Source of the DNA: a virus
Virus record (IMG/VR): IMGVR_UViG_3300036715_001290
Location: 64,001 to 128,000 of that record
Strand: one strand, 5' to 3'
Length of the DNA: 64,000 nt
Position numbers and translations under genes: made by a program. The notes beneath the pieces were generated by a model. The model worked only from the letters and a program-made list of their open reading frames with translations. It was not told where the DNA came from and did no database searches. Below are positions 47,072 to 55,804 of the stretch, piece after piece. How positions within the stretch are numbered: position 1 is the stretch's first letter; each line of letters begins with the position of its first letter.

Positions 47072-47142
47072 CTTCCATTAGCTTAGTGGTAAAGCAGCCG
47101 TCTCTAAAACGGTGATCGTTTGTTCAATTCAAACATGGAGGA
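47072..47142 (+). tRNA. Amber suppressor tRNA (anticodon CUA)
   Basis: Full cloverleaf: CTTCCAT/ATGGAGG, GCTT/AAGC, GCCGT-ctCTAaa-ACGGT, GTTTG-TTCAATT-CAAAC. Confidence 0.82.
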
Positions 47143-47154
47143 CAACAAAATAGA

Positions 47155-52280: not shown

Positions 52281-52380
52281 CTGATAGTATGGCGGAATAG
52301 TAGACGCACTGATAGTATACTATAATAATAAGTAGAACTCGGTTTATTTTTATATAGGTTCATATCCTATTACTATTAAG
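52281..52380 (+). ncRNA. Degenerate tRNA-like element
   Basis: TGGCGGAAT..TAGACGC D arm, ATAGGTTCATATCCTAT T arm, no anticodon loop. Confidence 0.4.
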
Positions 52381-52770: not shown

Positions 52771-52863
52771 GCTTTTTATAAATAACGAGGCGACAGTACG
52801 CGCCTACAATACTAGAAATAGTAAGAGATAAAAAGGTACAAAACATATTTTTTATTTTAATTT

Positions 52864-52972
52864 AATTATATAGCATAAATGGTAAATGCACACAGTCTTA
52901 GCATTGTGTAGAGTGGTTCGAGTCCACTATTGTTAGGGATGGCCTGTGTAGGTTCGAGTCCTACTATAATTA
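52864..52972 (+). ncRNA. tRNA-like RNA with two tandem T arms
   Basis: AGTGG-TTCGAGT-CCACT and GTAGG-TTCGAGT-CCTAC inside one acceptor stem. Confidence 0.55.
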
Positions 52973-55293: not shown

Positions 55294-55377
55294 GCATCTA
55301 TGGTGTAATAGGTAAACACGATAGTCTAAGAAGCTATTGGGAGCAATCCCGTAAGAGTTCGAGTCTCTTTAGGTGTA
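55294..55377 (+). tRNA. tRNA-Leu(AAG)
   Basis: ATAGT-ctAAGaa-GCTAT, long variable arm, A73. Confidence 0.8.
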
Positions 55378-55378
55378 C

Positions 55379-55590
55379 TAAATATTTATATGACATGTCG
55401 CTGATAATATTTATCAGAGGAACTTTGGGCATATAAAGGATATGTAGGAGATATAGAATCGTTTGTACTACAAGACGTGTATGAAACATCAAATGATGAG
55501 TTAGCAATCCTTTAACATATCATCAGGTAAGATGGATTAGAAAAATGACATGTTGAAATAACGGAACTCTAAGTATAGTATAAATATTTA
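55379..55590 (+). ncRNA. rnpB: Minimal RNase P RNA (~212 nt)
   Basis: P1 TAAATATTTATA/TATAAATATTTA; P2 CATGTCG/TGACATG; P3; GAGGAACTTTGGG; TGAAAC; AGCAA; P15 with GGTAA loop; ACGGAACTCTAAGT completing P4. Confidence 0.82.
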
Positions 55591-55597
55591 ATCTTAG

Positions 55598-55626
55598 TTG
55601 ACATTTGATATAATAATGGTTATATT
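55598..55626 (+). promoter_or_regulatory. Sigma70-type promoter
   Basis: TTGACA-N17-TATATT(TG). Confidence 0.75.
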
Positions 55627-55645: not shown

Positions 55646-55718
55646 GCGGTAGTAATTCAATTGGTAGAATACCACATTGCCAATGTGGAGGTTGTCGGTT
55701 CGAGACCGGTTTACCGCA
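55646..55718 (+). tRNA. tRNA-Gly(GCC)
   Basis: CCACA-ttGCCaa-TGTGG. Confidence 0.85.
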
Positions 55719-55804
55719 CAACATTAAAGGAAAATATTATGAAGAAACTTTTAGTAAAAGGTATATTTTTTCAGTAAGGTAAAACTAACTAAGGAAAAAT
55801 ATAT

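Follow-up and report, generated by a model that had tools for sequence, protein, structure and literature searches.

The window, a 64-kb stretch of a phage genome record, carries a candidate RNase P RNA gene at positions 55379-55590 of its plus strand, exactly where the original prediction had placed it. The element is 212 nt long and starts one base past the 3' end, at 55378, of the tRNA-Leu(aag) gene that it abuts (55294-55378, plus strand; identified by ARAGORN and scoring 55.4 bits with the Rfam tRNA model). It lies inside an array of 38 tRNA genes as counted by ARAGORN, or 36 as counted by Rfam, and there is no credible open reading frame within 55379-55590. The genome has a single copy of the element; a search for a second one with the covariance model R1, described below, found none. 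The phage record is 140 kb long, has a GC content of 27%, is rated 70% complete and encodes a family B DNA polymerase, a DnaB-like helicase and a ribonucleotide reductase. A sigma-70-like promoter site with 11 of 12 matches, recognised by consensus match only, is situated at 55598-55626 (plus strand), between the RNA gene and a tRNA-Gly gene (55646-55719), suggesting that the RNase P RNA gene ends one transcription unit. The T4 late-promoter motif TATAAATA, which occurs in the 3' strand of helix P1, was dropped because it is not enriched in the window, where the plus strand has 14 occurrences against 20 expected.

The tRNA genes of the window include one with the anticodon CTA (47072-47143, plus strand), which ARAGORN labels 'Pyl' and which scores 60.1 bits with the Rfam tRNA model. 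A tRNA with this anticodon is of the amber-suppressor type, which hints that TAG is read through or recoded in some of the phage genes. Two tRNA-like genes on the plus strand, at 52282-52379 and 52862-52937, have irregular anticodon loops (given by ARAGORN as 'atac' and 'ta') and score 34 and 43 bits with Rfam, respectively. In almost every tRNA gene the discriminator base is followed by C and then by AA or TA, not by CCA (for example at 55378, 55207 and 55288). No gene for a CCA-adding enzyme (PF01743) was found in the 140-kb record, and thus the 3' ends of the phage tRNAs must be completed by host enzymes.

The secondary structure of the candidate was mapped with helix labels judged against an alignment of the family of phage RNAs described below. 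All elements of a type A catalytic domain are present: P1 to P7, P15 to P17, the P6 pseudoknot, the GGU of L15, and the joiners J18/2 and J2/4. The mapped helices, ten in number and including two pseudoknots, contain 64 base pairs, every one of which is standard (P17 is not in this count). MFE folding gave a z-score of only about -2 on both strands and is uninformative alone.

The RNA is closed by P1, a terminal helix in which 55379-55391 pairs with 55578-55590 through 13 standard base pairs out of 13, and which covaries in the family. The 5' strand of P2 follows at 55392-55399 and pairs with 55547-55554 (8 of 8 pairs); this helix crosses P4, is followed by a conserved CGC and is modelled by the covariance model R2. 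P3 is a hairpin of 7 bp with the loop UAU (55401-55417). Directly 3' of it comes GAGGAA, which together with the 5' strand of P4 (55422-55429) makes up the equivalent of CR-I at 55417-55429. The 3' strand of P4, at 55567-55574, forms seven pairs out of seven with 55422-55429, and U55425 occupies the bulged-U position. Neither GAGGAA nor the bulged U varies in the family, and the spacing of the two P4 strands from GAGGAA and the ACGGAA element is the usual one. P5 consists of the 5 bp CAUAU/GUAUG between 55430-55434 and 55479-55483. Pair counts thus confirm P1, P2, P3, P4 with its bulged U, and P5, all of which had been named in the original prediction, and CR-I and the 3' ACGGAA element do lie with them within about 212 nt.

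In the middle of the molecule the labelling had to be revised. The pairing AAAGGA/UCCUUU, previously called P7, is the P6 pseudoknot, in which J5/7 (55435-55441) pairs with 55507-55513 in the P17 loop through the 7 bp AAAGGAU/AUCCUUU. The true P7 is the 5-bp helix UGUAG/CUACA formed by 55443-55447 with 55468-55472, so that the whole P7 element spans 55443-55472. No more than 20 nt, including a single 3-bp hairpin, lie inside it, and the separate helices P8 and P9 that had been proposed do not exist. These 20 nt are what is left of the specificity domain (P8 to P14, including the conserved regions for reading the elbow of the tRNA), which is almost wholly missing. The remnant carries the motif GGAG...UCGUUUG.AC at 55447-55468; the motif or a close variant is shared by several family members (set A2) whose selection took no account of it.

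The presumed motif UGAAAC turned out to be composed of the end of P5, J5/15 and the first base of P15. J5/15 is AAA (55484-55486), where the family mostly has CAA, and L336 likewise has GAAAC there. The P15-P16-P17 arm extends over 55487-55534. P15 has 4 bp (CAUC/GAUG, 55487-55490 with 55531-55534) and P16 has 5 bp (55495-55499 with 55520-55524), both established by pair counts, and P17 has 3 bp (55500-55502 with 55514-55516), read from the sequence by eye, with a loop that carries the 3' strand of P6. The AGCAA previously taken for a conserved-region motif is part of this P17-loop sequence. Between P16 and P15 there is an internal loop whose 3' strand, AGGUAA (55525-55530), includes the family-invariant GGU of L15. 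The GGU had been recognised in the original prediction, which placed it in a hairpin loop of P15, and not in the 3' strand of the P16/P15 internal loop where it in fact sits. P16, P17 and P18 had all been thought absent; this is right for P18 and wrong for P16 and P17, which the candidate has. The 3' strand of P15 is followed by 3 nt and then by a J18/2-type joiner, UAGAAAAAUG (55538-55547), which leads into the 3' strand of P2; its AGA.AAAUG hardly varies across the family and also belongs to the RF00010 consensus. P18 itself is confined to a few members of the family. J2/4 (55555-55566) ends in ACGGAA, the equivalent of CR-V, which reads ACAGAA or ACAAAA in the family. The structure shows two of the features by which type A is defined, a P4 with bulged U that crosses P2, and a P15-L15-P16-P17 arm with GGU and P6, and lacks two others, the specificity domain and P18.

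The Rfam models do not recognise the candidate. The RNase P models gave no match at their gathering thresholds and none at E<=10 in either a 321-nt slice around it or the 20-kb tRNA region, the 100-bit gathering score of RF00010 (RNaseP_bact_a) was not reached, and no archaeal RNase P RNA, including the minimal form of the Thermoproteaceae, produced an Rfam match to the candidate at E<=10. The original prediction had proposed an Rfam search as its check and had named a missing covariance-model match as one half of what would count against it; on that half the RNA would have been judged wrongly. This member is invisible to the Rfam models.

A covariance model, R1, was built from 18 mini RNase P RNAs of phages with the candidate left out. 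Applied to the window, R1 matched 55381-55588 over model positions 1-195 with a score of 62.4 bits (E 7.9e-17), and its only other match in the 64 kb was a single 5-bit fragment. Because some members of R1 had been found with motifs taken from the candidate, another model, R2, was built from 14 sequences picked by canonical RNase P motifs alone, again with the candidate left out. Its sole match in the window was 55381-55587, with 34.2 bits (E 2.5e-10). Likewise, GAGGAA...ACNGAA with the P4 pairing in register occurs at exactly one site on both strands of the 64 kb, which is the candidate. The R1 search of 41 related phage records yielded no match. The claim that this is an RNase P RNA is thus borne out by R1 (E 8e-17), by R2, and by the recognition of other family members by RF00010.

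The candidate is the most AT-rich member of the family (30% GC) and has the lowest score, 62 bits against 88-188 bits for the other full-length members, and even the matches cut by contig ends (L348, L349 and L330) score higher. Its closest relative in the family is at most 57% identical. The covariance-model matches strongly support a real, though divergent and reduced, RNase P RNA descended from the bacterial type A, and, as far as sequence comparison can tell, there can be hardly any doubt about its homology, its fold and its membership of the family.

The family consists of about 60 short RNase P RNAs (183-250 nt) collected from phage tRNA arrays. Large phage contigs (12-340 kb) yielded 20 loci with a pattern of canonical motifs at short spacing. 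At least seven further members came from a pattern with a base other than A after GAGGAA, filtered for P4, P2 and P1, and 35 metagenome loci from a pattern describing the remnant inside P7. Among 32 million contigs of prokaryote genomes this last pattern found one only, L356 (CAYHBE010000019.1, 10.7 kb); the contig is binned with a Dehalococcoidales MAG and is probably a phage fragment in the bin. The pattern tried initially, GAGGAAAGTC...ACRGAA, was rejected as too loose, since P4 was present in only 2 of 120 stretches among the matches listed. The members L200, L205, L193, L235, L278 and L188 are flanked by tRNA genes.

Recognition of the family by Rfam falls off by degrees. Over positions 1-367 of RF00010, L200 scores 106.8 bits, which is above the 100-bit gathering threshold, followed by L205 (71.7 bits) and L193 (63.5 bits), and then by the weaker L225 (48.9 bits), L188 (46.4 bits) and L278 (44.2 bits). 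For L233 and L235 the best score is about 36 bits, with the RNaseP_arch model, which reflects the shared core only, and L198 and L201 have no Rfam match. The falling scores indicate a graded series that runs beyond the reach of Rfam. Aligned to RF00010, L200 has just 4 nt in place of 142 positions of the specificity domain, and its P18 has been lost. At this locus (L200:408-749, minus strand) tRNA genes flank the RNase P RNA on both sides with a spacing of 0-1 nt. With such tight spacing, the 3' end would be made by RNase P cleaving the next pre-tRNA, and hence the ribozyme could release itself.

The fold of the family is under selection, as seen from the pattern of sequence changes. In 35 distinct sequences, 93.7% of the cells of the alignment form standard pairs, compared with 30-43% when the partners are slid, and 40 of the 47 consensus pairs are changed on both sides across the family. 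P4 is 98.8% paired, with seven of its eight pairs covarying, seven of the eight pairs of the P2 pseudoknot are changed on both sides, all five pairs of P5 covary, and P1 and P15 to P17 covary too. The complementarity of the P6 strands has a mean of 6.1, against 3.8 in shuffles, and is achieved by many different sequences.

The candidate itself retains 44 of the 47 consensus pairs, of which 15 are identical to the commonest pair, 3 are changed on one side and 26 on both sides. The remaining three comprise two unpaired cells, due to an alignment slip in P15, and one gap, due to the missing base in P4. In columns that are at least 90% conserved the candidate keeps 51 of 60 bases, including GAGGAA, the bulged U, GGU, AGA.AAAUG and AC.GAA; since about 25 of these columns were fixed by the search pattern, the fair figure is 26 of 35.

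One member may have a different history. BLAST aligns L196, in two pieces, with a bacterial gene annotated as 'RNA component of RNase P'. At L196:10595-10799 it keeps a P8-like hairpin and is 76-81% identical to gammaproteobacterial rnpB, the pieces bracketing the missing specificity domain. From this comparison, L196 seems to have been derived separately and recently from a host gene by deletion, so that the family may have arisen more than once. A BLAST search of five members against GenBank phages found no cultured carrier; L196 matched only bacterial records bearing rnpB.

The most conspicuous departure of the candidate from its family is in P4. The 5' strand of this helix is ACUUUGGG, compared with AAGUCCGG in the RF00010 consensus, and lacks one base relative to the rest of the family (a gap at alignment column 56), with the partner strand compensating the changes. 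The individual changes have precedents in members that look otherwise ordinary: C67/G359 and U68, which give C-G and U-A or U-G as the second and third pairs, occur in L275, L293 and L334, U70/A357, a U-A pair after the bulge, occurs in L328, and a strand shorter by one base occurs in L337. The G in ACGGAA and the A before GGU are unique to the candidate. Near-invariant core positions are altered by the replacement of C70 with U, which is compensated, of the third base of ACAGAA with G, and of the G preceding GGU with A. Any of these departures, or the short P4, could lower or abolish catalysis.

BLAST of the element against GenBank phages gave no match, no exact 20-mer of it was found in the viral contigs, and a synteny search by way of the two flanking ORFs uncovered no relatives in the viral contigs. 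Contigs that encode an identical flanking protein have an element that is 100% identical. As all other copies found are 100% identical, the candidate's own lineage provides no covariation. Homologues of the protein encoded by the upstream ORF exist, in contexts without tRNA genes. Among phages related through their DNA polymerase (36-44% identity), Rfam detects no RNase P RNA in the tRNA regions of G001 and G002, and R1 detects none in any of the 41 records. The relatives lacking the RNA include a complete genome of 172 kb with 24 tRNA genes (G002), which indicates that the RNA is dispensable for this kind of phage. In or near the tRNA regions of G002 and G001, the two nearest long relatives by DNA polymerase, there are tmRNA genes (L065:5036-5410 and L067:11665-12074), and the tRNA region of the window shows the reverse. 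RNA accessory genes are swapped between related phages. Another related phage contig contains a manA RNA motif (RF01745) at L066:17353-17554, with a score of 64.7 bits, above the gathering threshold.

The protein subunit would probably come from elsewhere. No rnpA gene (PF00825) was found in the 140-kb record, which is 70% complete, and PF00825 was likewise absent from 16 other records of carrier phages, 4 of them at least 90% complete. Since the phage is without rnpA, the host RnpA is proposed as the partner, which is consistent with the original prediction. Taken together, the candidate is probably a complete catalytic-domain RNase P RNA of the phage, active with host RnpA and transcribed and processed as set out below, with a probability of roughly 0.6. 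What we infer here is catalysis, the use of host RnpA and the scheme of transcription and processing; the homology, fold and family membership come directly from the comparisons above.

The RNA would probably be co-transcribed with the four tRNA genes upstream of it, and its 5' end would probably be freed by processing of the 3' end of tRNA-Leu. The sequencing runs listed as containing this DNA, from sediment or mat communities, are DNA runs with no RNA run among them. Once folded, it most likely joins host RnpA and most likely removes the 5' leaders from the 38 or so pre-tRNAs of the phage. Because the specificity domain is missing, recognition of substrates would depend chiefly on acceptor stem, leader and 3' end. 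The GGU of L15 could make its contact with CCA only after host enzymes have completed the 3' end, as the CCA is not encoded. With no module for reading the elbow, recognition would depend less on the shape of the tRNA body, and odd phage tRNAs should be tolerated. Activity without a specificity domain is plausible by analogy: the catalytic domain of a type A RNA alone is reported to cleave, at reduced efficiency (PMC5839562), and natural RNase P RNAs without most of the specificity domain occur in the Thermoproteaceae (PMC3579882).

The features that set the candidate apart within its family could also be read in other ways. It might be an RNase P-derived RNA that no longer cleaves and binds host RnpA or pre-tRNAs as a sponge, chaperone or regulator, for example by diverting RnpA from the host RNase P or by shielding the phage pre-tRNAs. 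Such a role would fit the active-site helix P4, which with three recoded positions and a length reduced by 1 nt is the most altered in the family, the change in the third base of ACAGAA, and the lowest covariance-model score, in combination with joiners facing the protein that have been kept. However, the parts that form the active site and dock the 3' end (the bulged U, the L15 GGU, P6 and J5/15) have been kept as well, and each of the P4 changes is compensated and is seen again in other, apparently canonical members. No decoy derived from RNase P RNA is known, and a loss of cleavage with retention of binding is considered unlikely, if worth keeping in mind. It is improbable, to a greater degree, that the gene is a decaying relic, once functional and now unused and drifting under AT pressure. 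The candidate is indeed an outlier in score and in GC content, 9 of the 60 near-invariant columns are changed, and related phages do without the RNA. Nevertheless, helices under neutral decay are broken without compensation, whereas here 64 of 64 mapped pairs are intact, 26 of the 47 consensus pairs of the family are changed on both sides and still pair, and only one base separates the gene from its tRNA neighbour to this day.

Cleavage might also take place without host RnpA, by the RNA alone or with a phage protein cofactor that has escaped recognition. The lack of PF00825 in the 17 carrier records and the many unannotated small ORFs in and around the array would accommodate such an arrangement. 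Bacterial RNase P RNAs need their protein in vivo, however, and J18/2, J2/4 and the P15 region, which in the structure of the Thermotoga holoenzyme reportedly face the bacterial protein, are among the best-kept parts of the candidate. Moreover, homologues of the two flanking ORFs are found in contexts without tRNA genes, so neither ORF is tied to the RNA in other genomes. Independence from RnpA therefore seems a slim prospect, slightly slimmer than decay. A chance resemblance, or an unrelated structured RNA, could be argued from the lack of an Rfam match and the MFE z-score of only -2.0, and is of negligible probability against the full-length matches to both R1 and R2, with no other significant match in the window and none in the 41 related phage records. 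The preferred reading thus remains an active catalytic-domain RNase P RNA that works with host RnpA. In its strongest version, a viral RNase P ribozyme that is fully active despite a rewritten P4 and essentially no specificity domain, the proposal is more tentative, and its odds, judged from the sequence, fall a little below even.

RNase P RNA is among the few ribozymes common to all cellular life. The candidate shares with the bacterial type A RNA (E. coli M1 RNA, the product of rnpB; RF00010) the order and topology of P1 to P7 and P15 to P17, the conserved GAGGAA before P4, AGA.AAUG before the 3' strand of P2 and AC.GAA before the 3' strand of P4, as well as the bulged U in P4, the GGU in the internal loop L15 and, as is typical of type A, the P6 pseudoknot. 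It differs in its length of 212 nt, compared with about 350-400 nt, in a specificity domain of 20 nt, in the absence of P18, in its recoded and short P4, in being encoded by a phage within a tRNA array, and in falling below every Rfam threshold.

The 'type T' RNA of Pyrobaculum (PMC3579882) is likewise natural and roughly 200 nt long, and has kept the catalytic domain while losing most of the specificity domain. Type T has an archaeal core and archaeal proteins, whereas the candidate has the bacterial type A module of P15 to P17 and P6, and the type T model, as far as Rfam release 15 holds it, does not match the candidate. With one core archaeal and the other bacterial, the loss of the specificity domain is convergent and not shared with type T. 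An engineered E. coli RNA reduced to the catalytic domain (PMC5839562) resembles the candidate in that both have a type A catalytic domain and no specificity domain. In contrast to that laboratory deletion construct, the candidate belongs to a gene family that is natural, is under selection and has a conserved motif of its own in the 20-nt remnant.

No published RNase P RNA encoded by a virus was found in the literature searched, including targeted look-ups in the main papers on huge phages. The closest published phage case is that of the theta ribozymes (PMC10879173), minimal HDV-like ribozymes which are also encoded by phages beside viral tRNA genes and have been proposed to act in tRNA maturation. 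These are small, self-cleaving RNAs acting in cis, whereas the candidate is a derivative of the trans-acting RNase P and would cut 5' leaders.

The family consists of natural deletion variants of about 200 nt, dozens of them covarying, and offers a ready experiment on the minimal functional catalytic domain. The candidate is its extreme case, with 30% GC, a recoded P4 and no visibility to Rfam, and indicates both how far the core can drift and what standard annotation misses. If the RNA is indeed fully active, the identity of the 'universal' bases of P4 would not be required for catalysis, as three of them have been swapped to compensating pairs and one has been deleted. The RNA would add a processing enzyme to the known translation toolkit of phages, so far made up of tRNAs, tmRNA and synthetases. 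Phages whose tRNA sets are large or odd may, as the RNA suggests, secure their own 5' maturation; large phages would then carry their own substrate-tolerant enzyme for processing tRNA 5' ends, using the protein subunit of the host.
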